Shown here: positions 35,484-52,823 of the stretch, in pieces | How positions within the stretch are numbered: the first letter of the stretch is position 1 | Layout: each line of letters begins with the position of its first letter | Origin: Candidatus Moraniibacteriota bacterium | Lineage (GTDB): Bacteria > Patescibacteriota > Minisyncoccia > Moranbacterales > UBA1568 | NCBI GenBank assembly: GCA_037133435.1 | Contig: JBAXOD010000002.1 | Span: forward strand, 23,545-87,544 | Direction of reading: 5' to 3' | Length of the DNA: 64,000 nt | Position numbers and translations under genes: made by a program | The notes under the pieces: model-generated | The model's input: only the letters and a program-made list of their open reading frames with translations | What the model was told of the DNA's origin: nothing | Databases searched by the model: none

Positions 35484-35570
35484 GCCGAGGTGGCGAAATT
35501 GGTAGACGCACCAGGTTTAGGTCCTGGCGGGAGCAATCCCTTGGGAGTTCGAGTCTCCCCTTCGGCACCA
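35484..35570 (+). tRNA. tRNA-Leu (anticodon TAG), CCA encoded
   Basis: Acceptor GCCGAGG, anticodon loop TTTAGGT, long variable arm, T-arm GGGAG-TTCGAGT-CTCCC, 3' ACCA. Confidence 0.85.
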
Positions 35571-35714
35571 TACGAAACCACCCTGCACCGTACGGTGCAG
35601 GGTGTTTCGATTCATCTTTCTCCGTCTTCCGCTTCGCCATACCGTATCCTTGGCGCAGGCGGATTCCCAACTCGTTAACACGTGAACTCGTTAACTGAAG
35701 AACTTACATGTTAC

Positions 35715-38312
35715 CTATCGCCTATACGCCGACCTCCGATCATCAGGCTCGGAAGCGGGAATCAGGGAAGAAACGAAACCGACCGAGAACAGGAGGAATG
35801 CCGAGGTCAGGATCATCCTGACGGCGAAGACGACGAACGGGGGCACGTATTTCGACACCGCTGCGAAAAATCGGTTCGATCCGGACGAGGCGACGGTCAG
35901 ATCCTCGTTCGCTATCGCTTGAACACGTACGTCACTTACGACCTTCGTTTCCGAGGAATCGATGACGTTGACTCCCCACAGATCTCGGAGTGCCACACGT
36001 TTCTCGTTCGCTTGGACGATTTTCCCCGTAAAGTTGACGAAGTTCGCGTCACCGATCGTGCCGGGTTTCGGAAGCGTATACGCTATCTGCATATCCGCGG
36101 ACTCGTCCACTGTTTTGCCGTCCACCGTCCAGACATGCGACAGCAGATACTTCTTCGCGTATCCCGGAATGATCGACGCCTTCATCGGTATGACGGTGCC
36201 GCTCGCGAACCGTTCGAAAATTTCGTCACTATGCTCGTCGTTCTTGGTACCGTCAAGTTCCGTAAACGTGCCGACGTATCGCGGCCAGACGGCACTCGTG
36301 TCGTTCGATTCGAGCAGGATTTCCGGATCGACGACCTGATAGTTCCGCGAAAGGGACAACGCCTTTCCCGTCGCTACATTCACCGCTTCCATCCGTACGG
36401 TGTACGTTTCTCCCGGCTCGCCCGTTACCGCGAAAAACGCGGTGTTCCCGAGCCCTCCCGAAGGACAGTCGACGGACGAGACGGTCGAGGAACAGTTCAG
36501 TGCGGCACCGTTTATGGTCCATCTGAAATTCTTCCACTCGGTAGAAGTCGCGTTGCGGAGCGTGACCCCGAGAATCTCGTTTTTCATGACGCGACACGAG
36601 ATACGGTTCAGGTTCTCCTTCGCTTCGGCCGCGGTGGAAGGCGTCGGATAGTACATGTCACAGATCGGATCAATCGAGGTGTCAAGCGCCACCTGTGCCG
36701 CGCCGGATGTGGACGCGGTCGCGGTGGTCGTATACGTGGAGATCTTCTTGTCCGTATTGGTGACTTTCACGACCACGTCGCTTTTCCCTTCGGGTCGGGC
36801 GATCATGTTCTGCGCAACCGTACTGCCGCCCGACGCCGTCGCGGTATAGGTGGTCGCGGAATAATTCTCTCCCGCCCGGGTCGTGATACGCATGTAGACC
36901 GGATCGGTATTCGCGAACGTACCAAGAATCTCCGGCTTCATATCAAGCAGCACTTTGATGGAAGTCAGGCCGTTCTGCGAGATCGCCTGGGTGGTGGAAT
37001 TCGGGAGCGTGATGAGCTTTCCAGCCGTGAGTAAACCCGCCGCCTCAAGCTGGGCCGTGACGTCCTTCCAGCCGTCGACCGGATTATTGCTCAGCTCGAC
37101 GGTCCACGAATAGGTGATTTCTTCGGGACTTTTGGATGAATTGTCGACCGAAGCCGTAGCAGTGACCATGTCCCCGCCGATTCCTTCCGTCTTGTCGTTC
37201 ACCGGATTATCCGGCGTCGCGGAAACGGAGAGCTCGAGTTTCTTGGAAGAACCGGATTCAGAATCCATCGGATCGACCAGGTTCATCTCGAGACAGTCAT
37301 CGATATCCCCTTTCGTCAGGCTGGTCGTCAAAAACGTGACCGGATACCCGTGTACCGTCTCTATATAGCTCCCAGGATTCTTGATGGGGCACTTCTTGTT
37401 CTTCGAGAATCCCCACTGGACCATCATCGTCGCGTCATCATGCTTCGTCGCGACCATCGACGATCCCTCCACGAGCACCCCGACTTTGTCTCCGGTCTGA
37501 TAGTTCCACTTGAAGGTATCCCGACCCAGGCCGACCGCGTTCGCCTCGTCCTTGTTGCCGTTACCGCTCGTATCCGGATCGTGCGGGTTGGTCCCCCATG
37601 CCTTCTCGTCCGACAGTCCGAATGTTCCGTCCGTTCCGCCGACCTGACTCCCGTTCAATTCCGGGAACAAGTGGACGCATGCCGGCAACTCATAAAAATG
37701 TCCGCTGACCGGATCGTGCATGTAGCACCAATCCTTCTTCGTATCGACGACGAGCTCCCCTCCGAAATGAGCCTTGTATCCGTCGTTATCATCGTCAGTG
37801 TCGTATTTGAATCCGTTACTGTCGGCATTGTCCGTAGCGAGGATTCGCGAAGCGGCGACTTTCCAATCATTGACGGTCACCGACCCGTCGTTGTCCGAAT
37901 CACAGTAACTCGCCTGACCGGAAGAACCGCCGAGTTCGCATCCGTTCCGCTTCAGATACCAGGTGTAATAAAGCTGTGACTCGCTGGCATTGGAAAAATA
38001 GGTCGGGAACGCCTTCGCGCTGAGTTTCTGCCCGTCCTTGGGATCCGAAGGGCTGAACGCAATCGTCACCTCGGGCGCGTTGCCCTTGTTTTCGGACACG
38101 TTGAACGACTCCCCGTATCTGCGTATGACCGCGGGGTCGAGATGATACCGCTGTTCAATGGCCGACGCTATCGAATCGGCACTCGGGAAATCCAAAGCGA
38201 CCACCTTTTCGGAAATGATGAAACCGGACAAGAAAATCACGAAAGCGACGGGAATCATTCGTCTTCCCGATTGTTTCCTCATTGGATGCATAGCGTTGAA
38301 TTTATTTTTCAT
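35715..38312 (-). CDS. Large secreted/surface protein (865 aa), Thr/Ser/Asp/Asn-rich, N-terminal signal-anchor
   Basis: Start MKNKFNAMHPMRKQSGRRMIPVAFVIFLSGFII; no catalytic motifs; composition of adhesin-like proteins. Confidence 0.5.
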   Translation of the reverse strand: MKNKFNAMHPMRKQSGRRMIPVAFVIFLSGFIISEKVVALDFPSADSIASAIEQRYHLDPAVIRRYGESFNVSENKGNAPEVTIAFSPSDPKDGQKLSAKAFPTYFSNASESQLYYTWYLKRNGCELGGSSGQASYCDSDNDGSVTVNDWKVAASRILATDNADSNGFKYDTDDDNDGYKAHFGGELVVDTKKDWCYMHDPVSGHFYELPACVHLFPELNGSQVGGTDGTFGLSDEKAWGTNPHDPDTSGNGNKDEANAVGLGRDTFKWNYQTGDKVGVLVEGSSMVATKHDDATMMVQWGFSKNKKCPIKNPGSYIETVHGYPVTFLTTSLTKGDIDDCLEMNLVDPMDSESGSSKKLELSVSATPDNPVNDKTEGIGGDMVTATASVDNSSKSPEEITYSWTVELSNNPVDGWKDVTAQLEAAGLLTAGKLITLPNSTTQAISQNGLTSIKVLLDMKPEILGTFANTDPVYMRITTRAGENYSATTYTATASGGSTVAQNMIARPEGKSDVVVKVTNTDKKISTYTTTATASTSGAAQVALDTSIDPICDMYYPTPSTAAEAKENLNRISCRVMKNEILGVTLRNATSTEWKNFRWTINGAALNCSSTVSSVDCPSGGLGNTAFFAVTGEPGETYTVRMEAVNVATGKALSLSRNYQVVDPEILLESNDTSAVWPRYVGTFTELDGTKNDEHSDEIFERFASGTVIPMKASIIPGYAKKYLLSHVWTVDGKTVDESADMQIAYTLPKPGTIGDANFVNFTGKIVQANEKRVALRDLWGVNVIDSSETKVVSDVRVQAIANEDLTVASSGSNRFFAAVSKYVPPFVVFAVRMILTSAFLLFSVGFVSSLIPASEPDDRRSAYRR

Positions 38313-38356
38313 CGTCCGTATGATAATGATTCCGATGGCACGTGAAACTGAAGACG

Positions 38357-39022
38357 TCACCTGCCAAAAACGAGAAACGCCACGTCGGCAAGAAACAGCG
38401 TCAGCCAGCCGGAAAACCAGGAATAATAGATCGAGCGGGTACGATGCGCGACGAACCCGGACGCGAATGCCGCAAGAATCATCGGCGTGCTGTTCCAACC
38501 GATACCGCCGAATGCCGCCAAAAACGCGACGAAAATTCCTCCTTGCAGAAAAACCGCGAGGATGCCGGTCTTGGACAACCACGAAAGCATGATGAGGCCG
38601 CGGAAAAACACCTCAAAGAGAACGGAGACGATACCGACCAGTACCACCTCATACAAAACGAAATAGAGGAACGAATCCTGAATGAAGTTTGGCAGCGAAT
38701 ACGTCACATCGGTCCCTCCGATAGCAATCACCGAGTACCAGACGACGAGAAACGGGATGACCGCGACCACGGCGGTCAGAAAACCGTATTTTTTCACGCT
38801 CCCCTGAAAACCGATCGATGAAAGCGGCTCTTTCTCAACGAAAATCACGTAGAGGATAGGGAGACACAGGAGAAAGACGATCCCCAACACGCCGGCCTGC
38901 AGGGATTCGTCCATATTCGCGTCGGCCGGAAACAAGCGAAATGCGAGAAGCGTCGCCACGACAAACAGTCCCGTCGAGAGGAACCGCTTCATATCGAAAG
39001 CCAGAATAGGAGTCTCACTCAT
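38357..39022 (-). CDS. CPBP family intramembrane metalloprotease (CAAX protease-like)
   Basis: EVFFRGLI motif (EExxxR), multiple TM, TATAAT 12 nt upstream of chosen start MSETPIL. Confidence 0.65.
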   Translation of the reverse strand: MSETPILAFDMKRFLSTGLFVVATLLAFRLFPADANMDESLQAGVLGIVFLLCLPILYVIFVEKEPLSSIGFQGSVKKYGFLTAVVAVIPFLVVWYSVIAIGGTDVTYSLPNFIQDSFLYFVLYEVVLVGIVSVLFEVFFRGLIMLSWLSKTGILAVFLQGGIFVAFLAAFGGIGWNSTPMILAAFASGFVAHRTRSIYYSWFSGWLTLFLADVAFLVFGR

Positions 39023-39076
39023 AGCATTGCTTCCATTATAACGTTTTTTTTCAATCTTGAAAATTTCTGACAAAAT

Positions 39077-40147
39077 TTAGGCGTTCTTGATCTTGTTCTT
39101 GATGCGACTCAGAAGAAACGCGACCAGAAATGACTGAAGCGGGAAGACGGCGATGATCGGGATGCTCTCGATTACCGCCACGATCACAATGACACCGATA
39201 CGCTTTGCTAGTAATATGATTTTCTCTTTCGGCGGCAGTTTCCTCGTATTCTTGTCAAGTGCTATGATGATGATCTGTCCGATAACGAACGGTCCCGAAA
39301 TGAGTGTGGTCACCCCCGGAAGAAAGAAATCGAAAAAATCGGTCAGGTCGTCGATGCCGCCGAGCATGTAAATCAATAATTTTGATGTAAACGACAAATC
39401 TGAGGCGTTCGGATCATGCTGTGCTGTTCCACTCCCCTGCACGGTCACGTTCCCCGTCTGCCCCGATTTGCGTTGCTCTTCCCAGGACGGGTATCGGGTC
39501 GGCCGTCCTCCCATGGCTTCCGATGATTCTTCCGCATCCTCCTCATCCGATTCAGTAGTCACCGAATTCGGAACAAAACGCAGATTATTTGGAGATTCGC
39601 TATATCGGACATTCCGCTGTTTCGGCCGGGCTGTCGTCGATGCGGCTGGTTTCCCCGAAGCGGAGTTCGAGAGCTGCAAACTGTAATTCTCACGTGCTCG
39701 TTTCGTTTCGATCGCAAGCCGTGTCGCGTCCGGATTTCGATCTTGTTCGAGTTCAAGCTCATCCCTTAAAAGTGCACCAAAAGATTGTACATTCATATTC
39801 TCAGGCCGGTTCGCAGTCAATTCCGCGGGCGTTTCCGAAGTGGCGATACGGCGCTGCAGACGAGTACTCTCAGTCGCTCGTTTCTCGAGCATCGCACGCT
39901 GAACAGCGGCTGATTCCCGGTCACTGTCGATCGCGTCCGCTGTCAAAAGAGCGTCGGCCGCTACGACCGTACGGGCGATATTTTGTCGTGCTCCCGCGGC
40001 CTCATTCATCCTCCGTGCACGCAGGCCCGCAAGCATGCCCGACATACGTGCCGCATTCCGTGCGTTAGGCGAAATCACGGTCCGATCCGAAGCCGGCAAG
40101 CGGGCACGACCGTCGGGAGCTCCTGTATTTGGATTCGAAGTACTCAT
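39077..40147 (-). CDS. Hypothetical protein: ~260-aa disordered polar N-region plus C-terminal TM pair
   Basis: 356-aa ORF, C-terminal FVIGQIIIIAL and IGVIVIVAVIESIPIIAVF helices. Confidence 0.45.
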   Translation of the reverse strand: MSTSNPNTGAPDGRARLPASDRTVISPNARNAARMSGMLAGLRARRMNEAAGARQNIARTVVAADALLTADAIDSDRESAAVQRAMLEKRATESTRLQRRIATSETPAELTANRPENMNVQSFGALLRDELELEQDRNPDATRLAIETKRARENYSLQLSNSASGKPAASTTARPKQRNVRYSESPNNLRFVPNSVTTESDEEDAEESSEAMGGRPTRYPSWEEQRKSGQTGNVTVQGSGTAQHDPNASDLSFTSKLLIYMLGGIDDLTDFFDFFLPGVTTLISGPFVIGQIIIIALDKNTRKLPPKEKIILLAKRIGVIVIVAVIESIPIIAVFPLQSFLVAFLLSRIKNKIKNA

Positions 40148-40229
40148 AGGTACTGACTACGTATCACGAATCATTATGAGAGAGACCGAAAGGAGCGATA
40201 GAATCAAAAAGACGACCTCCCGTGACGGA

Positions 40230-40385
40230 AGACCGTCTTTACGCAGGTTCAGGGTTGTACCCTGAACCACGGGGTTTACAACCGATACCGAAGCTCTGAT
40301 ATGGAGAACCGACCTCCGGTAAGGTTCTGACACAGGGAGAGAAACATTTCGGAGCAGGGTACAACATTGCTCCAGTAAAGAATCG
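40230..40385 (+). repeat. Hairpin repeat family copy b: cgcaggttcagggttgtaccctgaaccac and ggagcagggtacaacattgctcc
   Basis: Matches 12071-12093 (inverted) and 49647-49673 / 49821-49843. Confidence 0.6.
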
Positions 40386-40432
40386 AGCTCTCATCCGCCA
40401 AACTGGAACGAAATATAAATTGGGAAATGGGA

Positions 40433-42769
40433 TCAATATCCCGCACCCGCGTCGAAATCGCGTTTGGCCTGTTCGATCTCAAGCAACTGCCGCGGATCCG
40501 TCGTAATGACCTGATCCTCGCTGTACGAAGCGATAACCTTGATCGCGACGTGTTTCGTCCCGGCGAAAAAGATTCCCTCTCCCACGTTCGATTCGAGCAA
40601 CAAGAACTTCTCGTGATCGGTCAGGTAAAAGAGATCCGCAATGAGATCAATCGAAGCCGGCGACTGTTTGAGGAGAAGCTGGATAGAGGAGTTTGTGACG
40701 ATCGGTTTACCGTAGCGTGACGCCATGAAATCGCCCACGTCCTGGGTGATGGTCGTCAGTCCCGCGAAGTACTTGCGGCACCGTTTCGCGATACCGAACA
40801 TGAATGCGGCGGCATCCTCGTTTTGCATCATGATCCACGCCTCGTCCACGACGATCAGCCGCTGTTTCATTTCCACGCGGATCTCGTTCCAGATGTACTG
40901 CAAGATGACGTACATCGCGATCGGCCGAAGCTCGCTCTCGAGGTCCCGGATATTGAAGACGATCATCTGCCGATTCAACGACACGTTTGTCTGGTGATTG
41001 AGGAACCCGCTGAAGACGCCCTCGGTATACTGTTCGAGCCGCGCCGCGAGCGATTCGGCACCTTCGACATTGCGAAGCACGGCATAGAGATCCGTCATGG
41101 TCGGGAACGATGCCGCGTCGAGAGAGCGGAAGTCCGACGATTCGGTGATGTCGCGGATGGCATATGTCTCGCGGATCGCACGGTCAAGGACGGAGTCCTC
41201 TTCCGGCGTCACCGCGCCGAGCATGAGGTGTAGCAATCCGATCAGGTTCGCGACATGACTGCGGAACACGCCCTGTTCATCTTCCGTCGCGGCGATTTTC
41301 GGAAGGTCGAACGGGTTCAGATGCGCGTCGGAGGCGAGCGAAATGTCGAGGAACGTCCCGCCGACCGTGTCGCACAGGTGCTTGTATTCCTGTTCCGGAT
41401 CGATGATGACGACGCTCGTCCCGAACATCATGGAACGCAGTATCTCGAGTTTGATGGTATAGCTTTTTCCGGCGCCGGATTTCGCGAAGACGACCATGTT
41501 GGCGTTTTCCATGCGGAACCGGTCGAACAGGACGAGCGAATTGTTGTGCCGGTTGATCCCGTAGAGTATCCCCTCGTTCGAGGACAAATCGGAAGACACG
41601 AACGGAAACGTGGTGGACAAGGGCGAGGTGTTCAGATTGTTCGCGATATCGAGCAGGTCCATGCCCAAAGGCCTCGTGGAGATGAATCCCTGATCCATCC
41701 GCAGCACGGCCTGCTTCGTGAAGACGAGCTGCGCCTCGAGTATGGACTCGATGTTTCTGGAAATGTCGTTGAGTGCCTTCTCATCGGCCGCATAGACGGT
41801 CATGTAGAGTCCGAATCGGAAGAATTTCTCCGTCCCCTGCTGCAGACGGTCGCGAAGATCCTGGATGTTCTCGAGTGCGGCTTCGAGCATAGGATCGCGG
41901 ACCTTGCCGCCTTCGGCCTCGATGCCGATCTGCGAACGGACGTGCGTCTCGGACGCACGCAACTCACGCATGATCTCACGCGTGTCGACCGGATGAATAA
42001 GGAAGCCGACGTCCATCGGGGCGTCGATATTCACGATCGGGGAAAACCAGTTCGTCCCGAGGTATTTCGGATACGCGATGACGAAATGCGTCCGCGCGAA
42101 CACGCTGCCGACATGGAAAAAGCTCGGTGACATGCGTATCGCCGGCGGTGCGATGAGATCCTTGAGACTCGCGACGCCCTTGCGATAGAGCTCTTCCGAT
42201 TCGGTGCTGCCATGTGAAGAAAATACGGAGGTCAAAAATCCGCCCTTGCCGCCGCCGGCCGATTTCTGCTTGGAGGAAGGCCGTTCGACCTCCGCCGAAT
42301 ACGGAATGACCTCCTCCTCGAAACCGGACGGGCGTGAGTAAGGTGCGGCTGATTCCGAACCAGGTGCGGGAATACGGGACGATTCCGCTTCGACAGCGGA
42401 AGGAAGAGGCTCTACCGTAACCGGCGGCGTATCAAAAGAACGCGCCGGCGCGGGTTCGGATGATGCCGGTTGCGACGACCACGAGGCATACGCGGGCGCC
42501 GCCGATTCCGCCACCGGGATCGGTGCGGGTACCGGAGTCGGTTGCACTGCGGGAGTGGCCGCGACCGGGGGCGTCGACACGACCGGAGCGTCGAAATACT
42601 TCGGCTCCGGCGCGGAAGCGGGAGTCGGGATCGGTGCTGGCGCGGGTGCGGCCGGAACGGGTGCCGGTCCCGAAGGAGATGCTGTACCGCCGCCGGCATC
42701 ACTTAATCCGAGCAGTTCCATGATGAGCGCTTTGCGCTGTTCCGGATCCAATTGTGCTGGTGTAGGCAT
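40433..42769 (-). CDS. VirB4/TrbE/CagE-family T4SS ATPase with ~180-aa Pro/Ala-rich N-terminal extension
   Basis: Walker A VVFAKSGAGKSYT, Walker B LIVVDEAW, CagE_TrbE_VirB N-domain block FHVGSVFARTHFVIAYPKYLGTNWFSPIVNIDAPMDVGFLIHP. Confidence 0.8.
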   Translation of the reverse strand: MPTPAQLDPEQRKALIMELLGLSDAGGGTASPSGPAPVPAAPAPAPIPTPASAPEPKYFDAPVVSTPPVAATPAVQPTPVPAPIPVAESAAPAYASWSSQPASSEPAPARSFDTPPVTVEPLPSAVEAESSRIPAPGSESAAPYSRPSGFEEEVIPYSAEVERPSSKQKSAGGGKGGFLTSVFSSHGSTESEELYRKGVASLKDLIAPPAIRMSPSFFHVGSVFARTHFVIAYPKYLGTNWFSPIVNIDAPMDVGFLIHPVDTREIMRELRASETHVRSQIGIEAEGGKVRDPMLEAALENIQDLRDRLQQGTEKFFRFGLYMTVYAADEKALNDISRNIESILEAQLVFTKQAVLRMDQGFISTRPLGMDLLDIANNLNTSPLSTTFPFVSSDLSSNEGILYGINRHNNSLVLFDRFRMENANMVVFAKSGAGKSYTIKLEILRSMMFGTSVVIIDPEQEYKHLCDTVGGTFLDISLASDAHLNPFDLPKIAATEDEQGVFRSHVANLIGLLHLMLGAVTPEEDSVLDRAIRETYAIRDITESSDFRSLDAASFPTMTDLYAVLRNVEGAESLAARLEQYTEGVFSGFLNHQTNVSLNRQMIVFNIRDLESELRPIAMYVILQYIWNEIRVEMKQRLIVVDEAWIMMQNEDAAAFMFGIAKRCRKYFAGLTTITQDVGDFMASRYGKPIVTNSSIQLLLKQSPASIDLIADLFYLTDHEKFLLLESNVGEGIFFAGTKHVAIKVIASYSEDQVITTDPRQLLEIEQAKRDFDAGAGY

Positions 42770-42773
42770 ATGT

Positions 42774-43460
42774 TTATCTTCCGGTCAGTTCCACCGACTC
42801 GATATTCTTGACCACCGACGACGTGAACAACGAAGGGTTGTACGAATTATACAAAAGCTCGATGACCTCTTCGGTACCCAAAAGCGTGGTCCGGACGCCG
42901 GTACCCATGAGTGCCGACGCGACCAGATCGGCGCGCTGGAACAGCTGGTTCTTGTACGTCTCGAACACCTCTCCGCCGATGAACGTCTGCTTGACCGGAT
43001 TGAATATGCCGCCCATCTTCGTGAAAAAACCGCCCTCTTTCGTCTCGGAAGGGGCGAACGGTACCACGACAAAGAACGATTTCGACATGATATTCGAGAC
43101 ATCGGTCAGACTCTTGATGAAATTCGCGTATTCCGAAATCTGGAACCGCAAAAGGTCATTCTCCTGGGTCTTTTCCTGTTGCTTGAGCTTCTCGAGATAC
43201 GGCTCGATGCGGAAACGGCGCGAGTGCACGATAATCTGGAGCGGAAAATCAAGCGAGTTGAGGAAATTCTGATACTGTATGATGATCGCATCCTGCTCGT
43301 CGGTCGATTTGAGGTCGAAGTTGATGGAAGACGCGAGCAGCACCGCCCGGATGGAGCCGTTGCGCAGTATCATGACGCCGTCGCGGACTTCCTCGACGTC
43401 CACGTACTTTTGTGTGCTCGCGGCGTCCGATTCCTTTTTGTTGTCGGTGATGCGTTCCAT
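42774..43460 (-). CDS. Hypothetical T4SS-associated protein; N-region resembles the extreme N-terminus of Gram-positive VirB4 (PrgJ/TcpF-type)
   Basis: DGVMILRNGSIRAVLLASSINFDLKSTDEQDAIIIQYQNFLNSLDFPLQIIV; 4-nt gap to VirB4 start. Confidence 0.4.
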   Translation of the reverse strand: MERITDNKKESDAASTQKYVDVEEVRDGVMILRNGSIRAVLLASSINFDLKSTDEQDAIIIQYQNFLNSLDFPLQIIVHSRRFRIEPYLEKLKQQEKTQENDLLRFQISEYANFIKSLTDVSNIMSKSFFVVVPFAPSETKEGGFFTKMGGIFNPVKQTFIGGEVFETYKNQLFQRADLVASALMGTGVRTTLLGTEEVIELLYNSYNPSLFTSSVVKNIESVELTGR

Positions 43461-43490
43461 AGTTTTCCGTGGTTGTGTGTTTTTCCTCCG

Positions 43491-43889
43491 CTATTTCCGG
43501 TCCACCGCCTCCGCTATGCGGCGTATCTCCGCTTCCGTGATCCTCCGCTCGGGCGCGACCGATCCGGTATCGATCTTTTTCGGAAGAGTCTTCTGTACTG
43601 GCTTCCCGAGCGGCCTTCGCCACATCATGACCTTCGGATTGAAGAGAAAAAAGAATCCGTAGATCACGAAAAGGAGGAGTGGCTGACCGTTCGGCCTGTA
43701 AAACGCGAGGAGACAGAAAATGATGATGATCGGTATGGAAACCAGGTAGATCGCGATGCCGTCACCGATGATGAACTTGGCGACCAGGATGGTCGTCCCC
43801 ATCCCGATCATCCACAAAAGTTGCTTCCCGGTGAGCGGTCCGGCGATCTTGTCTTCCACGTCGACAAATTGCGGTACGTTGAATATCAT
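43491..43889 (-). CDS. PrgI-family (VirB3-like) small membrane protein
   Basis: MIFNVPQFVDVEDKIAGPLTGKQLLWMIG N-terminus typical of PrgI; two TM helices. Confidence 0.6.
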   Translation of the reverse strand: MIFNVPQFVDVEDKIAGPLTGKQLLWMIGMGTTILVAKFIIGDGIAIYLVSIPIIIIFCLLAFYRPNGQPLLLFVIYGFFFLFNPKVMMWRRPLGKPVQKTLPKKIDTGSVAPERRITEAEIRRIAEAVDRK

Positions 43890-43946
43890 AGCACGGATTC
43901 GGAGATTATCACATTCAAAAACTTCGACTCACTCAAGGATACCATA

Positions 43947-45812
43947 TCAGTTCCGAAGATCCACGACGCGACCCGGGTCGTCGTCTTCCGAAGCCACGAA
44001 CCCGTCTTCCGTATCGACGGGACGGATATAGTACGGGCCCGCTTTCGGTGCCTGATTCGGACGCGGGACATCCTGCGGCATCTGCCGATCCGATACGGGG
44101 GTCCGGACGATTTCGGTGTGGTACGGCTCGGTCGCTCGACCCTGCGCGAATGACGTCGCGGACGGCAACGCCACGGGCCGGGTCGTTTCGATGTCGTCAC
44201 GGATGGAATTTCGTTTCGAATAATCGATTTCGCCAGGCAACGAATGACCGGAAGAAAACGACATGCCGCCACTCCTTTCGGACACATGCGGGGAATGCGT
44301 GATCGGTTCCACGACATCATCATGCGCGCGCGTACCGATCGGAGCAGGAGCGGATGTGTCGATATCCTTGGATGCGACATCGCGGATACCGTCATTTTTC
44401 CAAAATGCCACCTTCGACGTATCCGGTTGGAAGGACGGGATCGCACCGGACGCGCGGAGCGGTGCGGGCTGCACCGGAGCGGGACCGATCGGCAGATCGC
44501 GCGGAGGGGCGGCAGTCGGTCGAGGTGCAAGAGCCGGTGCTACCGGTCGTGCGGGTGACACATATGGCCGTGAGACCGGCTCCTGAACAGGTTCCACATA
44601 TCGCGGAGCGGGAGCCTGTGAAGGCGGCGCGACCGGTCGTGCAGGCGGTACATACGGAGCCGGTGCCGGTGCTTGAATGGGTTCGGCAGAGTGTAACGCC
44701 GATGCAAAATGAGGTGCCTCGGTCTGAAATTCTTGATTCGATATATGAACCAATTCTTCTTTGGGTATCACATATTGAGATGCGGAAGCCGGAGCTGACG
44801 AGGGTAGCGAAACCGGTCGTACCGGTGGTACATACGGAGCCGGAGCTTGTGGCACTTGATACTGCGCGGGAGTTGGTTCCACATATCGCGACGCGGGAGC
44901 TGGCGCTGCAGTATGTTGTGCAGGCGTCGGCGGGACCGGTCGTGCCGGAGGCACGTACGGACGCGGTTCCGGTCTTTGTGCGACTGCTGCCGGTCGCGCT
45001 GGAAGCGATGCCGTACCGCGCCCGGACTCTTGGAAGGTCGGGAAGACGATCTCCATGGTTTCTGTATCGACGTCGAGCGCGACATTGTCCTCCACGGACC
45101 GGACAATCAGGTTGATCCTCTCCCGTTCTTCCGAAGAGAGTTTCTTGCCGTTCTCCGAATCGAACAGGAATTTGGCGCGAAGCATCGGATCGTGATATCC
45201 CACGCCGAGATCGTTGCGATACGCGCGGATCCAATTACCCAAACTCGGCCGGACCGTTTCCAACTGACCGTGGATATGGATACGCTCCGTCGAGAGTATC
45301 TGTTCGCTGAGTTTCGGATACTGGCTCACCGCCTGTAAAAGCGGGAGTGATACGGTCGCCCGCAGTGCCGCCTCGGACAGGTCTTCATCCTCGTCCTCAT
45401 CCTTTTCCAGAAGCCACGGTTCGAGTTCGAACACTTTTTTTCGCGCTTCCTCGAGTCCGATGACCGGTGCGGATTTTTTGGTCGCCCATTCGGCCCCGAG
45501 TGCGGCAGCATCGGTGAAGTACTCCGGGAAGCGCGAAAATATCCGCTGATTCACCTCGTATGCGATGCCGTATGCCACGCTCCGCTCGATGCCCGCCTCC
45601 CATCCGACTGTCGCCGGATAATCCGCAAGTGATATCTCGCGCACGAATATTCCCCCAAGCGGCCCGGTCACGGCCGGAATAGCCTCTTCCGGGAGTCCGT
45701 AGAGCATGCAGACCTCCTCGCAGAGGATACGCGGATCGTCCAGCATGAAAAAGTCATGCACAGGCGCCGGCAGCTGCTTCAGTTTTTTGAAAAAATCCTC
45801 CTGCATAATCAC
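43947..45812 (-). CDS. Protein with globular N-domain and Pro-rich repeat C-region (PAPYVPPARPV repeats)
   Basis: 621 aa; at least six YVxPxRPV-type repeats between aa ~290-500. Confidence 0.5.
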   Translation of the reverse strand: MIMQEDFFKKLKQLPAPVHDFFMLDDPRILCEEVCMLYGLPEEAIPAVTGPLGGIFVREISLADYPATVGWEAGIERSVAYGIAYEVNQRIFSRFPEYFTDAAALGAEWATKKSAPVIGLEEARKKVFELEPWLLEKDEDEDEDLSEAALRATVSLPLLQAVSQYPKLSEQILSTERIHIHGQLETVRPSLGNWIRAYRNDLGVGYHDPMLRAKFLFDSENGKKLSSEERERINLIVRSVEDNVALDVDTETMEIVFPTFQESGRGTASLPARPAAVAQRPEPRPYVPPARPVPPTPAQHTAAPAPASRYVEPTPAQYQVPQAPAPYVPPVRPVSLPSSAPASASQYVIPKEELVHISNQEFQTEAPHFASALHSAEPIQAPAPAPYVPPARPVAPPSQAPAPRYVEPVQEPVSRPYVSPARPVAPALAPRPTAAPPRDLPIGPAPVQPAPLRASGAIPSFQPDTSKVAFWKNDGIRDVASKDIDTSAPAPIGTRAHDDVVEPITHSPHVSERSGGMSFSSGHSLPGEIDYSKRNSIRDDIETTRPVALPSATSFAQGRATEPYHTEIVRTPVSDRQMPQDVPRPNQAPKAGPYYIRPVDTEDGFVASEDDDPGRVVDLRN

Positions 45813-45926
45813 ATTTGCGTTCCAATCTTTTCAACCTTTTTAGAAATAATTCGAACCATCTCCCCTTATGGGACCCTGCCCGCCGGAATTTTTTTCTCCG
45901 CCCAAGTTTCCACCTGTATTCCCATC

Positions 45927-48404
45927 TCAATTATTCTCTGGCACTCTATCTACCAAACCGAACCGATGATCTCTTCCCATTGACTTATGTGCCGATTCCG
46001 CTTCTTTTTTTAGGGCGACTGCAGCAAGGTTAGTTTTATCTACTTCAGCAGCCGCGAGCTCTATGATCTTATCAGTCGATTTATTTATTTTCGCTCCATC
46101 CTCAGCTAGTTTCGCAAGATTACTCACAGTTTTACTGGCTCCTCCATTCGCTAAAAGCATCGGCATAATGGCAGCCAAATTGTCCGGATTCTTACTGACT
46201 GCGTCGAGCGTCAAAGCATCGGCTTTCTTGTACACGGAATCTTGTACAGCTATATTGGTTTTGACACTATTATGGAATTCACCTTCTCGAGAGAAGTATG
46301 CCTGGTGTGCCGCAGTACGTTGCTTCTCGAGAATTTTCTTTTCTTGTGGCGAACCAGCGGCATCTATTTTCGCCTTAATATCCGGATCAAATTGCGCAAC
46401 AGCAGTATCAAGATTCTCGGAAATCTTCACCGACTTTTCCCCATCCTTACTCAGTTCGTCGAGGACAGTCTGATTGATCTTATTCGCAGTAAGACCGGCC
46501 GCAAGCACCTCTGAGGTCAATGCGTTCGCAGTCTGACTTTCGAACTTAACCCTGCCACTCTTGAGCACCTTTGTCATTTCTTTGACATCAGTACCGTACG
46601 CCGCCTTTAGGTTCACCTCGGCAACATTCGCCCTCGTCTCCTTCACGACAGCATTGTCCATACCGCCGCGATCCTTGAAGTGATCCTCGACTAACTTCAT
46701 ATCGGCATTCTCCATCTTGCCCTGCAGTTCGGGACGTTTCCGCATCTCATCCAATACCGCCGTCATATGAAGGCCGTCTTTTCTGCTCTTCGCTTCGGCA
46801 TGCTGCTTCTCAAGCTCTGAAATCGACGTATTGGAATTGATAGCCCTTCGTTTCGCCTCTTCCTTTACGAGTTCCTGTTCACGCGTAAGCGCGCCCGTAG
46901 CGGCCATTTTCCTGCCCGCCTCGGTTCTGAATCTTGACTGCGCCGCGTTCCTCTCGGAAACCAAGTTGCGATGCTGGCCGAACCGCGTCCCGACATTGTT
47001 CCTACTGAATCGGTCATCCTTGAGTTTCTTCCTCTCGCTCCGATAGGCATCCACGCGCTTCTTGCCAGCTGTGATACCGGTCACGAATTTCATCGCTCCC
47101 ATCGCATATTTCTTCACCGCATCCGCTCCATAAATACCCATCATGTTTCCGACACTCATCGCCGCCCATATCATGATAACAGGGATGATTGTTATCACCA
47201 TCGAGGTAATAAGGGATGTATTGTCCGCTGATGTCCTGATTCCGGAAGTTATCGTCGTAATTGTCGTAGCAGCCGAACCATTCTTAAAGTTCTTCAGAAA
47301 CGTAACAGCTACAAGGATCATGAGCATTGCGGCTGGACCAAAAAACGCATATTTCATGAAATAGTCCCACCATTGTTTAGAAAATCTCTCCAATCCGGGG
47401 ATGGCGGACGCCGCAAATCCAATCGGCGAAAATATCACCAAAAGCAAAAGGGCCACCAAACGGACCAGAAACAATGCGGCGAGCATCAATAGTGACGCAG
47501 CCAATAGAAAAGTGAACACGATTGCCTGAATAAGAAACCCGGTCGTTTTCCCCTCCCAAAGAGATGATTTTGCCGTCGATGGCAAGAGAAATTTCGAATA
47601 CCCGCTATTCCCCATCAGTTGTTCGAAGATATTAGTAGCACTCTGATTGCTTGGCCCCAAAATACTGTCGATGAAAAAGTACATCGGCACATTCGTCGCG
47701 TCCACGATAAATCGGGACACCGGGAAACTGAAGTTCACTAAGAGAGCCATCAAGACGAGCTGTAAGAGCCATTTTCTATAATTGTATGCCTGAATCTGAA
47801 ATATCGTCCCGAATGCAACGAACAAAAGCGTCAGTATGAAGAACAGGTTGAAAAAATCCCGAACCATTCCCCACATCGTATAGGTGGCCGACATATTGAA
47901 CAGTTCCAGCCATACTTTCGCATCCACCGCCCACGCGAAAATTACCGCGGCGAGACCATAGAGCAGGCTGATAAAGGCAAGGACCGCATATAAAATGATG
48001 TTCAAAGCGCCCAGAAAAATATTTGCTGACAAATTCCCAACCGCTGAAGCAGCCTCTGCCAACGGTTTCACGGAGAGTGTTTCCGCCGCGTTTATAACAG
48101 GATCCGTAGAAAGAGCCGCAGCAAACAAACCAAGCGGCGCAGTATCGTACGTATAGTTCGCGTAATTCTTGCTCTTACAATACGCCCGGCAAGCCTCACC
48201 GCTCGCTGTCGGTGCCGCCGGAGGACTGATTGTTTCTTGAACTGGATGAAGTACCGCGCCACTGCGGCAAAAGCATGATTCTCCGGCTGCATGTGCTGTT
48301 TTTGCAAACGAGAAAAATATCGCGCCGGAAAACACAAAACTCACCAAAAAAATGGCTGAGGATACCGAAAAAGAAATGTTCTTGATTTTTTTCACAACAG
48401 GCAA
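45927..48404 (-). CDS. VirB6/TrbL-like polytopic membrane protein with long charged coiled-coil C-terminal domain
   Basis: Signal peptide, ~7 TM in residues 120-430, then Lys/Glu-rich 350-aa tail; architecture only. Confidence 0.45.
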   Translation of the reverse strand: MPVVKKIKNISFSVSSAIFLVSFVFSGAIFFSFAKTAHAAGESCFCRSGAVLHPVQETISPPAAPTASGEACRAYCKSKNYANYTYDTAPLGLFAAALSTDPVINAAETLSVKPLAEAASAVGNLSANIFLGALNIILYAVLAFISLLYGLAAVIFAWAVDAKVWLELFNMSATYTMWGMVRDFFNLFFILTLLFVAFGTIFQIQAYNYRKWLLQLVLMALLVNFSFPVSRFIVDATNVPMYFFIDSILGPSNQSATNIFEQLMGNSGYSKFLLPSTAKSSLWEGKTTGFLIQAIVFTFLLAASLLMLAALFLVRLVALLLLVIFSPIGFAASAIPGLERFSKQWWDYFMKYAFFGPAAMLMILVAVTFLKNFKNGSAATTITTITSGIRTSADNTSLITSMVITIIPVIMIWAAMSVGNMMGIYGADAVKKYAMGAMKFVTGITAGKKRVDAYRSERKKLKDDRFSRNNVGTRFGQHRNLVSERNAAQSRFRTEAGRKMAATGALTREQELVKEEAKRRAINSNTSISELEKQHAEAKSRKDGLHMTAVLDEMRKRPELQGKMENADMKLVEDHFKDRGGMDNAVVKETRANVAEVNLKAAYGTDVKEMTKVLKSGRVKFESQTANALTSEVLAAGLTANKINQTVLDELSKDGEKSVKISENLDTAVAQFDPDIKAKIDAAGSPQEKKILEKQRTAAHQAYFSREGEFHNSVKTNIAVQDSVYKKADALTLDAVSKNPDNLAAIMPMLLANGGASKTVSNLAKLAEDGAKINKSTDKIIELAAAEVDKTNLAAVALKKEAESAHKSMGRDHRFGLVDRVPENN

Positions 48405-48701
48405 ATCCTGAAGTCGAAATATTTGAAACCGGGCGCAACAATACGCGACATGATTATACTATAATTTTTGGAAAGAGAGAAACAGCAATAAGCAAGAGAA
48501 CATCTCACAAGTACGCCACAAGAGGACTGTCAATATTGAAACAAAAATTGAACCAGACTCTAAATTGTAGATATTGGAAATCTTTCCAACAAAACTAAAA
48601 TTATTGACCATGATAAGCAAAGCAACTTAAAAATAATGCGAATAAACAAAAAAAGAGAGGCCAATTGGTCTCTCTTGGAATTGATACCGTTGTCACAATA
48701 C

Positions 48702-49277
48702 CTATTGAGGCCGCGCATATGCCAAAATAGTATTATCAAAATAGTATTTCCGTTCCCACTCTTCCTCGACCGGACCATAATCCGTCCCATTTTCACTAAA
48801 TCGAGAAGAACTTCCATCACCGTAAAAAACAATTATCTCTGCTTTTAATTCGACTGGTATCACCAACTGCTCAATAGTATTATTTGTGATTCGGGCAACG
48901 TACCCGTATTTCACTTTCTCTACGCTCGCCCCAGTTGCCTTATGAAGTATATCGCCGATACTTGGATCAGGATTGACGTTATCGTCAGAAAGATATGAGA
49001 CAAGTAATGTGTTTCCGAACAGTTTGTGCGACAACTCAATATATTTCACCCCTCCGGTCAATTTGTTGTTCTTCCCTAAATGAAGCCTTTGTCCAGGAGG
49101 CGCACCACCAGATGAAACCAAAGTCTCTCCCCCCTGGCTCATTCCTGCCGAAACGATTGGCTGCGTGCCGTCATTTGCAGCACTGTTTCCATTGTTTTTA
49201 TTACTACTGCAAGCGCAGAGACCGACTATGCCCAAAAAAAAGGCAACTTGTACTAAATATACTAAAGATTTCTTCAT
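48702..49277 (-). CDS. Putative lipoprotein
   Basis: MKKSLVYLVQVAFFLGIVGLCAC signal/lipobox-like, 191 aa. Confidence 0.5.
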   Translation of the reverse strand: MKKSLVYLVQVAFFLGIVGLCACSSNKNNGNSAANDGTQPIVSAGMSQGGETLVSSGGAPPGQRLHLGKNNKLTGGVKYIELSHKLFGNTLLVSYLSDDNVNPDPSIGDILHKATGASVEKVKYGYVARITNNTIEQLVIPVELKAEIIVFYGDGSSSRFSENGTDYGPVEEEWERKYYFDNTILAYARPQ

Positions 49278-51177: not shown

Positions 51178-51545
51178 TTGTAAGGTGCGAGAAGTCGGTT
51201 CCCCATCCCCGCTCCCCGCTCCCTTCCTGCTCCACTGCCTGAGGGGAGCTCCCGTGGTTTTGCACGGGTGAGGGGTGGGAGAAGTTGCCCATCCTTATCC
51301 CCGCTCCTCACTTCTCACTCCTCATTCCTGTCCCCACTCCCCGCTCCCGTTCCCGTCCCCATTTCAAAATTCGAAATTCAAAATTCAAAATTGCTGAGAC
51401 CCTGTTCCTTATTATCTGCTCAGTGTTAACTGAAGTTATCCCTTATTCAAGGGTAAAGCTACCTATTTCACCATCAATTTTCGTTGACATTGCCCCCCTG
51501 CGGAAGCTATACTCGATTCCATATAACACCTTAGGGCGCCGGCGT

Positions 51546-52823
51546 ATGATGCGGACTCCCTTTCGAGCGAAAGGAGCCCATCTACCGCCCCGCCTCGTAG
51601 AAGGGAACGCCCGTATAGCATTCTTCTCCCGCATCCATAAAGGTTGGGCGCGAATCCGCGAATATGTCGCGGCGCGTTATGCGATAACCGAAACGTTCAT
51701 CCATCACGTCCAAAGCGAATGGTTCGCCGTCCTTCGCAACGGATTCGGCAAGAAGATCGCGGAAGTGTTCCGTTCATATGGATCATTTTCCCTCGTCATA
51801 ACGAGCGCCCTTCTGGTCTCGATGACGAATCTCACGCAGGAACAGGGATCCAAGAGCGCGATACTCGGCAGTTTCCGTGTTTCCATGGCACAAGATGCCG
51901 AACAACCGAGGATACGGGTCACCTCGGAACAACCGGCTAAAACGGGACTTTCCCAGGTTCCGCTCGAAAAATCATTTTCCGGCATAGATACGACGGCGCA
52001 GACCGAGGAAACGACATCCGCCGTCTTCCAAAGCGGCGCACTCCTTTCCGCACAGACCGAAAGCTCCATCGCTCGCGATCCGGAAGAGGAAGGCGGCGTC
52101 ACGATCTACACTGTCAAAGAAGGCGACACCATTTCCGGCATCGCGGCGGCCCACAACATCACCGTCAATACCATCCTCTGGGCGAACGACCTCGAGAACG
52201 TGGACGCGATCAAGCCTGGCGACGACATCTTCATCCTGCCGGTCGCCGGACTCTCTCATGTGATCGCAACAGGCGAAACGCTCGATTCCATCGCGGACAA
52301 ATACAAGGCCGACCGCAGCGCCATCATCGCGTTCAACGGGCTTCCCGCCAACGGCGAAATCACCGTCGGGGACACGGTCGTCATCCCGGGAGGTTCCAAG
52401 GAATTACCGAAGCCGCCGGAAGTCGTCGGGCTCCGCCAATACGCATCCTCGACGAGCGCCGGGTCCGTGACGGACATTTCCGGCGGATATCGCAAACTCG
52501 ACGGCAGGGCCGGCGCCGGGCATCGGTTCCCGTTCGGATACTGTACCTGGTACGTCGCGCAGAAACGGTACGTACCGTGGGGCGGCAACGCGGGAGCCTG
52601 GCTCTACAATGCGCGCTCGCAGGGATACCAGACCGGCAAGAGCCCGTCCGCGGGAGCGATCGTCGTGACGACCGACAGCGCCTACTACGGCCATGTGGCG
52701 CTCGTTGAGAGCGTATCCGGCGGGTCGATCACCGTATCGGAAATGAACTTCAACGCGTGGGGCAAGGTGGACCGCCGTGTCATACCCGCGTCGAGCCGTT
52801 CCATCAAGGGATACATCTACTAG
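51546..52823 (+). CDS. LysM-repeat / CHAP-domain peptidoglycan hydrolase
   Basis: Two LysM repeats (YTVKEGDTISGIAAAHNITVNTILWANDL; HVIATGETLDSIADKYKADRSAIIAFNGL), CHAP-like C-terminus with Cys (GYCTWYV) and His (YGHVALVE); start uncertain. Confidence 0.65.
   Translation: MMRTPFRAKGAHLPPRLVEGNARIAFFSRIHKGWARIREYVAARYAITETFIHHVQSEWFAVLRNGFGKKIAEVFRSYGSFSLVITSALLVSMTNLTQEQGSKSAILGSFRVSMAQDAEQPRIRVTSEQPAKTGLSQVPLEKSFSGIDTTAQTEETTSAVFQSGALLSAQTESSIARDPEEEGGVTIYTVKEGDTISGIAAAHNITVNTILWANDLENVDAIKPGDDIFILPVAGLSHVIATGETLDSIADKYKADRSAIIAFNGLPANGEITVGDTVVIPGGSKELPKPPEVVGLRQYASSTSAGSVTDISGGYRKLDGRAGAGHRFPFGYCTWYVAQKRYVPWGGNAGAWLYNARSQGYQTGKSPSAGAIVVTTDSAYYGHVALVESVSGGSITVSEMNFNAWGKVDRRVIPASSRSIKGYIY

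Follow-up and report, generated by a model that had tools for sequence, protein, structure and literature searches.

The last two genes of a minus-strand cluster in a Candidatus Moraniibacteriota contig (JBAXOD010000002.1; the 64,000 nucleotides (nt) analysed here are called the window) encode a polytopic membrane protein, tm221, and a large surface protein, big865, and the cluster upstream of them is that of a type IV secretion system (T4SS). Our best reading, to which we would give about an even chance, is that tm221 is a non-catalytic CPBP scaffold by which a surface adhesin or stalk belonging to the Patescibacteria T4SS is held at its conserved C-terminal helix. What the analysis shows is the gene anatomy, the folds of both proteins, the degeneracy of the catalytic motifs of tm221, the strict adjacency of the two genes, their place beside T4SS genes and the fact that the anchor of big865 is conserved in its sequence. 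The two genes are as follows, lengths being given in amino acids (aa):

38357-39022, minus strand: tm221, a 221-aa polytopic membrane protein with a CPBP/Rce1 fold and degenerate catalytic motifs
35715-38312, minus strand: big865, an 865-aa surface protein and type I membrane protein, from the open reading frame (ORF) and its translation, with the ATG at 38312

These are two consecutive ORFs that take up the minus strand from 35715 to 39022, tm221 upstream and big865 distal, with a 44-nt spacer between them, and the 865-aa frame of the original prediction is borne out. A database protein identical to big865 (P0001) has been called as 847 aa, with its start at Met19. A 955-aa GTG start for big865 was dropped because the frame overlaps the upstream gene, and a 238-aa TTG start for tm221 (39073) was dropped because it overlaps a promoter-like site; the ATG is preferred over the latter because the orthologues of tm221 are 214-225 aa long.

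Membership of tm221 in the CPBP superfamily, as originally predicted, stands, and the relationship is clear at the level of the family. The tm221 of the window has no match to PF02517 (Pfam) even at E<=10; 40 of 71 orthologues match it at E<=1 (best 1.9e-7), and some database homologues carry a precomputed PF02517 annotation. A structure model built from 30 database homologues predicts an Rce1-type polytopic helical fold, and Foldseek ranked 4cad first; the sequence identity between tm221 and SpdC is 12%. The best NCBIfam match is the archaeomyxosortase MrtA (NF040590; E 1.6e-4), with 21.9 bits against a cutoff of 200. One 73%-identical homologue (P0122) was named 'glucose-6-phosphate-specific signal transduction histidine kinase' by JGI, almost certainly in error, since the protein is a polytopic membrane protein.

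Active CPBPs carry the motifs EExxxR, FxxxH and HxxxD/N (PMC12260438); the catalytic water is held by the first Glu together with the His of motif 2, and the oxyanion hole is made up of the His and Asn of motif 3 (MrtX, Rce1; PMC11980579), and the catalytic Glu and His residues are required in Rce1 and MrtX (PMC11980579, PMC12260438). None of the three motifs (EExxxR, FxxxH, HxxxN/D) is found in the tm221 family across its 71 orthologues. What is left of the first is:

38597-38617, minus strand: degenerate motif 1 of tm221, F-E-V-F-F-R-G, aa 136-142, from column counts

Here the position of the first Glu (136) is Tyr in 53 of the 71 orthologues and Phe in 11, giving the pattern (Y/F)ExFFR, and E137, F139, F140, R141 and G142 are invariant; the string EVFFRG, previously taken for a protease motif, is a non-catalytic remnant of EExxxR. 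At motif 2, F164 is kept in 66/71 and position 168 is Leu, Val, Ile or Phe rather than His, and at motif 3, D213 is kept in 68/71 and position 209 is Leu, Phe, Val or Ile, again rather than His; in no column of the orthologue alignment does His exceed 12/71. The register of these motifs was set by the invariant R-G of motif 1, by MmRce1/MrtX-like spacing and by the helix positions of the model (TM5 for motif 2), no curated alignment being used. No canonical CPBP (EExxxR...H...HxxxN/D) that could anchor the alignment occurs in the window or in 83 loci collected for comparison, the most distant match (P0150) is itself non-canonical and yielded no PDB anchor, and profile searches of PDB sequences with the tm221 and big865 families returned nothing useful.

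The tm221 family thus appears to have lost the catalytic Glu/His/His set, and the protease activity and processing of big865 that had been foreseen for tm221 find their catalytic residues missing family-wide. The loss of catalysis itself is probable rather than certain, because polar residues conserved within the predicted helices (E137, R141 and S197 invariant; E125, Q160 and D213 near-invariant) could make a non-canonical active site. The pattern matches that of non-catalytic CPBP scaffolds: SpdC, LnsB and SpbR are CPBP homologues with degenerate motifs and no catalytic role, whose partners are other membrane proteins, and the motifs of SpbR read HELYMR, FIYLD and QIVAI (PMC12260438). Like these scaffolds of the SpdC/SpbR/LnsB type, tm221 has degenerate motifs on a CPBP fold.

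The pairing of the two genes extends well beyond the window. A hidden Markov model of tm221, built from the 71 orthologues and run on the 83 loci, all of which come from metagenome-assembled genomes, matches exactly one ORF in 79 of them, and in the other four the contig breaks off within 220 nt upstream of the large gene. In all 79 assessable loci tm221 and big865 are immediate neighbours on the same strand, and the co-occurrence that the original prediction proposed as a check is complete. Measured from the end of the tm221 frame to the point where the big865 open frame begins, the median gap is -7 nt (range -669 to +174), leaving no room for another gene. VirB4 is encoded upstream of the pair wherever about 4 kb or more of sequence is available, with the sole exception of locus L070 (362-9315), in which the pair is intact and preceded by genes for PNPase, a UPF0102 nuclease-like protein and signal peptidase II, not by virB4. 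This arrangement is either a rearrangement or an assembly join, and as the pair is adjacent there without an upstream virB4, it stays together even when detached from that gene. The proposed association with the T4SS is upheld in every locus with enough sequence except this one, and a consistent context outside the T4SS was not seen. The order virB4, small transmembrane (TM) protein, tm221, big865 is kept across about 70 species in which the proteins are 31-66% identical, and the organism names given for homologues of the two proteins are of the kind Candidatus Moranbacteria/Moraniibacteriota (Patescibacteria, Parcubacteria group), nearly all of the 79 loci bearing the title Moranbacteria or that of an unclassified metagenome-assembled genome. 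Dozens of records of metagenome-assembled genomes titled 'uncultured Bdellovibrionales bacterium' (L013, L015, L018, L022 and others) carry the Moranbacteria-type cluster, with 31-41% identity to big865; these titles are probably taxonomic mislabels.

The big865 family is compact. More than 160 homologues of big865, all annotated as hypothetical and mostly from Moranbacteria, were found, and a search of 1.84 billion representatives gave 501 representative clusters at E<=1e-3 and 371 at E<=1e-30, nearly all members being full-length (800-1270 aa). Neither Pfam nor NCBIfam gave a match to big865, in keeping with the earlier statement that it has no enzymatic motifs. The enrichment in Thr, Ser and Asp that was noted before is present and only mild (S 9.6%, T 8.7%, D 7.2%), without low complexity. 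From the N-terminus to the membrane the protein is laid out as follows:

38193-38312, minus strand: signal peptide, aa 1-40, with a basic n-region, a hydrophobic core at aa 19-42 and a VVA|LD site, from hydropathy
37278-38075, minus strand: most conserved ectodomain, aa 80-345, with Asp-rich loops and three of the five conserved Cys pairs (mean 2.85 bits)
35883-37277, minus strand: chain of Ig/FN3-like beta-sandwich domains, about aa 346-810, from DSSP of the model and Foldseek
35754-35882, minus strand: C-terminal module, aa 811-853, a juxtamembrane helix and a TM helix, from per-column counts in 118 sequences
35718-35753, minus strand: cytoplasmic basic tail, aa 854-865, ...DDRRSAYRR

The N-terminal hydrophobic segment (aa 19-42) had been read as a signal-anchor. 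The segment is there, but an AxA-like site follows the hydrophobic core in big865 homologues and suggests a signal peptide that would be cleaved; a second hydrophobic segment, at aa 822-853 and followed by the basic tail, had gone unreported and is read here as the anchor. All ten Cys of big865 are conserved, which fits an extracytoplasmic location. The Asp-rich loops of the ectodomain (DxDxDGxVxxxD at aa 138-149, DxDxDGY at aa 173-179 and NPxDPDTxxNGNKDEAN at aa 242-258) are spaced like EF-hand or dockerin-like sites, and the shape of these motifs suggests that they may bind Ca2+; no Pfam profile matched this ectodomain. The AlphaFold2 model of big865 (118 sequences) is confident and nearly all beta, with a mean predicted local distance difference test score of 85.6, and Foldseek against the PDB returned 210 matches at E<=1e-3, mostly to proteins with tandem Ig/FN3-type domains, among them NCAM Ig1-3 (2.7e-8), CEACAM, the MG domains of complement C3/C5, protocadherin-15 and CD22; a Nitrosopumilus S-layer protein was matched over the full length (E 1.2e-5). 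The structure prediction for Ig-like repeats is therefore positive, in line with the adhesin-like surface protein that the original prediction described. The big865 of the window is a short form, most homologues (900-1270 aa) being extended after aa 211 by a Cys-rich insert that measures about 100-200 aa; what it shares with its closest relative instead is a Thr/Ala-rich insert of 22 aa (aa 483-505), for which the confidence of the model is low.

The juxtamembrane consensus of big865, G-x-(K/R)-(K/R)-(Y/F)-x-A-A-x-x-S-Y-x-P, is modelled as a short helix before the membrane, and the TM helix that follows has an invariant basic residue at 832 (R in 82 and K in 36 of 118), an invariant Ser or Thr at 836 and a conserved face made up of F829, L839, F842, F846 and L850. 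The mean information content of aa 811-853 is 2.79 bits, as against 2.85 for the best ectodomain and 1.98-2.54 for the other domains, and conservation is periodic on one face of the helix (helical moment, shuffle p=0.04). Conservation equal to that of the best ectodomain, together with periodicity on one face, is expected of a specific helix-helix interface and not of a throw-away anchor; it also makes a secreted effector a poor fit. At least two Lys or Arg residues occur in the tail of 116/118 homologues. A regular expression for the C-terminal motif matches 64/83 homologue frames and the window once, and the six-frame ORFs of the loci, 1.39 M residues in all, hold no other protein that carries it. 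The translated sequence of big865 has no LPXTG, the sortase anchor of the PrgB type, and Cys occurs in the last 70 residues of only 2/118 homologues.

A mechanism that would join these observations can be outlined. The two proteins would work as a single module, placed at the distal end of the conjugation-type (MPF-FATA-like) T4SS cluster that Moranbacteria carry on the chromosome and co-expressed from a -10 element of their own at the cluster end. On this account big865 would be exported by Sec, lose its signal peptide and be retained by its single C-terminal helix with the short basic tail in the cytoplasm, so as to present outside the cell a disulfide-bonded, probably Ca2+-stabilised N-terminal domain followed by the Ig/FN3-like chain, as an adhesin or stalk. 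The juxtamembrane and TM segment would be bound by tm221, candidate contacts being R/K832 and S/T836 of big865 with the membrane-embedded E137/R141, E125, Q160, S197 and D213 of tm221, and this binding may stabilise, orient or dock big865 at the membrane platform of the T4SS. For such docking there would be precedent in Staphylococcus aureus, where SagB is held by SpdC at its only TM helix and SpsB is bound by SpbR; this helix of SagB packs against SpdC in the SagB-SpdC structure and is needed for the complex (10.1101/2020.05.21.109470). Physical contact between tm221 and big865, and their link to T4SS function, are what we infer; a role in adhesion or host contact is suggested by the fold and the gene order, and so is a physical tie to the T4SS.

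The pair forms the terminal end of a cluster with these members:

39077-49277, minus strand: T4SS cluster upstream of the pair
39077-40147, minus strand: p356, with C-terminal TM helices, from hydropathy
40433-42769, minus strand: VirB4, NCBIfam CD1110 family (monoderm type), 358.3 bits against a cutoff of 325
42774-43460, minus strand: TrsD, NCBIfam 2.1e-5
43491-43889, minus strand: PrgI/VirB3, Pfam PrgI 7.9e-8
43947-45812, minus strand: p621, a Pro-rich protein of 621 aa
45927-48404, minus strand: p825, a polytopic, VirB6-like protein of 825 aa, from hydropathy
48702-49277, minus strand: p191, a lipoprotein of 191 aa

A VirB4 of the CD1110 type with TrsD and PrgI/VirB3 nearby marks the cluster as MPF-FATA-type. 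No relaxase is in view in the chromosomal virB4-trsD-prgI cluster of the window, and genes for the CCA-adding enzyme and IF-2 lie downstream of the pair on the other strand. The T4SS gene order of the window is matched in two independent contigs retrieved by protein identity and in 80 loci of GTDB assemblies (one genome per species), and the cluster is a chromosomal, relaxase-poor, MPF-FATA-like T4SS as described for Patescibacteria (PMC12102498). The T4SSs of this group are reported to be chromosomal and MPF-FATA-like (Quinonero-Coronel et al. 2025, PMC12102498); the same survey detected no adhesin and very few VirB8 homologues and makes no mention of CPBP or CAAX proteins. In the single cultivated Saccharibacterium tested the T4SS is essential, its function being unknown (PMC12857230, PMC11665869). 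Our literature search for a CPBP homologue tied to a T4SS machine returned incidental co-mentions and no linking paper.

Several further features of the cluster may be recorded. The gene between virB4 and tm221 (39077-40147 (-) in the window; L001 8931-9296; L047 2-2340) keeps its C-terminal segment of two TM helices, and its N-terminal part is very variable, with 105-121 aa in several relatives, 356 aa in the window and at least 779 aa in L047. Protein p825 begins with about 6-7 TM helices and ends in a charged domain of some length, like an 'extended VirB6', and p191, at the cluster head, has a lipoprotein-like signal (LVGLCAC); neither has a profile match. About 2 kb past the cluster head, a 512-aa protein (51285-52823 (+)) with two LysM domains and a CHAP domain (Pfam 9e-21, 1e-17) is a candidate VirB1-like cell-wall hydrolase. 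On a related 826-kb contig, five consecutive genes for VirB2-like pilins (T4SS_pilin, PF18895) lie about 7 kb beyond the large gene (L001 19929-22362).

Signals that could set the pair apart in transcription lie on either side of it:

39035-39063, minus strand: promoter-like site TTTTCA-17 nt-TATAAT, from a window scan, ending 12 nt before the tm221 ATG
35579-35604, both strands: perfect hairpin with an 11-bp stem, 3' of the big865 stop and before tRNA-Leu, terminator-like on either strand
35484-35570: tRNA-Leu

The TATAAT that had been placed before the small gene is present at 39040-39035. Promoter-like sites in the window are no commoner than chance (13 against 10.1 +/- 3.1 in shuffles), but in the orthologous loci the box is enriched: an exact TATAAT occurs within 60 nt upstream of tm221 orthologues in 18/69 loci, as against 1.1% of random windows, and one with at most one mismatch in 55/69, as against 19%, an enrichment that is somewhat overstated because the background is all sequence rather than intergenic sequence only. 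Close relatives of the tm221 locus have TGnTATAAT or TATACT at the -10 position, and the position of the -10-like box is conserved across orthologous loci. Between virB4 and the gene for the 356-aa protein there is a terminator-like hairpin (40208-40240 (-)), its 15-bp stem being followed by a run of T, and the last three genes may therefore be transcribed apart from the ATPase genes.

Non-catalytic scaffolding by tm221 is favoured because the motifs are degenerate, SpdC is the closest structure, a face of the big865 helix is conserved and the basic residue at 832 can be paired with acidic residues in the partner, and several observations weigh against it. In 77 tm221-big865 pairs, mutual information with average product correction placed 4 of the top 30 couplings in the C-terminal segment where 1.6 would be expected, a slight and unconvincing excess. 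It is gene order only that ties the pair to the T4SS, and L070 has the pair with no virB4 upstream; the restriction of the family to one lineage (501 representative clusters) means that it is no universal T4SS part. A non-canonical active site could be made up of E137, R141 and S197, which do not vary, with E125, Q160 and D213, which hardly do, and a tripartite C-terminus (motif, TM helix, basic tail) next to a CPBP gene is also the signature of dedicated sorting. The main rival, conceivable if unlikely, is that tm221 is a myxosortase-like intramembrane endopeptidase that cuts the anchor off big865, the signal being the AAxxSYxP motif, the TM helix and the Arg-rich tail, and that big865 is then released or passed to another anchor, as in MrtJ/JDVT-CTERM and MrtX/MYXO-CTERM. 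Strict one-to-one adjacency, seen in 79/79 loci, is a mark of dedicated systems under Haft's criteria, and dedicated MrtJ/JDVT-CTERM pairs are adjacent in 16/17 cases (10.1101/2023.06.07.544157); cleavage of MYXO-CTERM by MrtX has been demonstrated experimentally (PMC11980579). The N-terminal signal peptide of big865 along with its tripartite C-terminus, the confinement of the C-terminal motif to this protein in the sequence examined, the MrtA match as the best that tm221 has in NCBIfam (E 1.6e-4) and the invariance or near-invariance of E137 and R141 in motif 1 and D213 in motif 3 all point the same way. However, all 71 orthologues are without the first Glu and the two His residues, the MrtA score of 21.9 bits falls short of the curated myxosortase threshold of 200, and all described myxosortase signals include an invariant Cys (10.1101/2023.06.07.544157, PMC11980579), whereas just 2/118 big865 homologues have a Cys of any kind in their last 70 residues. 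Sorting would also leave unexplained why a helix destined for removal is conserved residue by residue, beyond mere hydrophobicity. A variant that we regard as somewhat less probable again has tm221 as a histidine-less intramembrane enzyme of the CPBP fold, using E137/R141, E125, Q160, S197 and D213 on a Cys-free C-terminal signal, namely (K/R)(K/R)(Y/F)xAAxxSYxP, a TM helix with an invariant Arg or Lys and an Arg tail, and thereby maturing an extracellular arm of the T4SS; were it true, no dedicated system for protein sorting would have been described in Patescibacteria before it.

At much the same low level, or marginally under it, we would place the proposal that big865 is a general surface lattice of Moranbacteria, an envelope or S-layer protein with a C-terminal helix as anchor and tm221 as its membrane chaperone, the proximity to the T4SS reflecting conserved synteny and not shared function. 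An Ig-like chain with acidic loops and a C-terminal anchor resembles archaeal S-layer glycoproteins, and the full-length Foldseek match to the Nitrosopumilus protein (E 1.2e-5), the pair's own conserved -10 element, its survival apart from virB4 in L070 and the position of the cluster among housekeeping genes would all suit such a role. Yet the gene order is kept in about 70 species at 31-66% protein identity, which argues for selection on co-expression, and conservation of the ectodomain is good, 49 of its positions being the same in all 118 sequences, whereas lattice proteins usually diverge fast. That tm221 is an active CPBP protease that processes, or gives immunity to, a secreted effector delivered by the T4SS seems highly improbable; the superfamily membership of tm221 and the T4SS context agree with it, but the catalytic motifs are degenerate, no bacteriocin-like gene adjoins the pair, and big865, having a Sec signal peptide and a conserved membrane anchor, is no cytoplasmic T4SS substrate. 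A bacteriocin-immunity (Abi) role for tm221 was rejected, there being no peptide gene nearby and a strict linkage to big865.

The nearest known counterparts to a scaffold of this kind are in Staphylococcus. In SpdC (LyrA)-SagB of S. aureus (PDB 6U0O), SpbR-SpsB and LnsB-LnsA, as in the pair described here, a degenerate polytopic protein of the CPBP/Rce1 fold is joined to a single-pass partner with an extracellular functional domain, and SpbR has kept a motif 1 remnant, xExxxR, as has tm221. The partners differ in that those of SpdC, SpbR and LnsB are N-terminally anchored hydrolases or peptidases, whereas that of tm221 is a C-terminally anchored, Ig-like surface protein of 865 aa; the two genes here, moreover, are strictly adjacent and lie within a T4SS cluster, and the complex is a proposed one. 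A further precedent for the role proposed for tm221 would be APH-1 of gamma-secretase, a protein of the CPBP fold that is reported to act as a subunit without catalytic function (Pei et al. 2011, as quoted in PMC12260438). Rce1 itself (type II CAAX protease, PDB 4CAD) has the catalytic Glu/His/His/Asn set that tm221 is without, and no prenylated substrate is expected in bacteria.

The myxosortase systems (MrtX/MYXO-CTERM, MrtJ/JDVT-CTERM, MrtA/CGP-CTERM) likewise have a CPBP protein next to a signal-peptide protein that ends in a motif, a TM helix and an Arg-rich tail, and the dedicated ones share the one-to-one gene arrangement seen here (79/79), but EE, FxxxH and HxxxN are not conserved in tm221, the signal of big865 is without the invariant Cys and the MrtA score is far under its cutoff. 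Among T4SSs, those of Patescibacteria have the same chromosomal virB4-trsD-prgI cluster as the window (PMC12102498), and PrgB of pCF10, a Gram-positive T4SS adhesin, is, as big865 is, a large Ig-like surface protein encoded in a transfer operon. Unlike PrgB, big865 has neither LPXTG nor PrgB homology, and it is anchored by a conserved TM helix that has a partner of its own. Given that the T4SSs of Patescibacteria are widespread and that the survey of them reported no adhesin and almost no VirB8-like parts (PMC12102498), big865 offers a concrete candidate, strictly conserved, for what the T4SS displays at the cell surface in one large lineage, Moranbacteria, with a membrane partner dedicated to it. 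A degenerate CPBP scaffold with a single-pass partner is already known; what is new is the identity of the partner, its anchoring at the C-terminus, the strictness with which the two share an operon and the setting in a T4SS cluster, and these would extend the emerging idea of degenerate CAAX-protease homologues as scaffolds from the cell-wall enzymes of Staphylococcus to a secretion machine.

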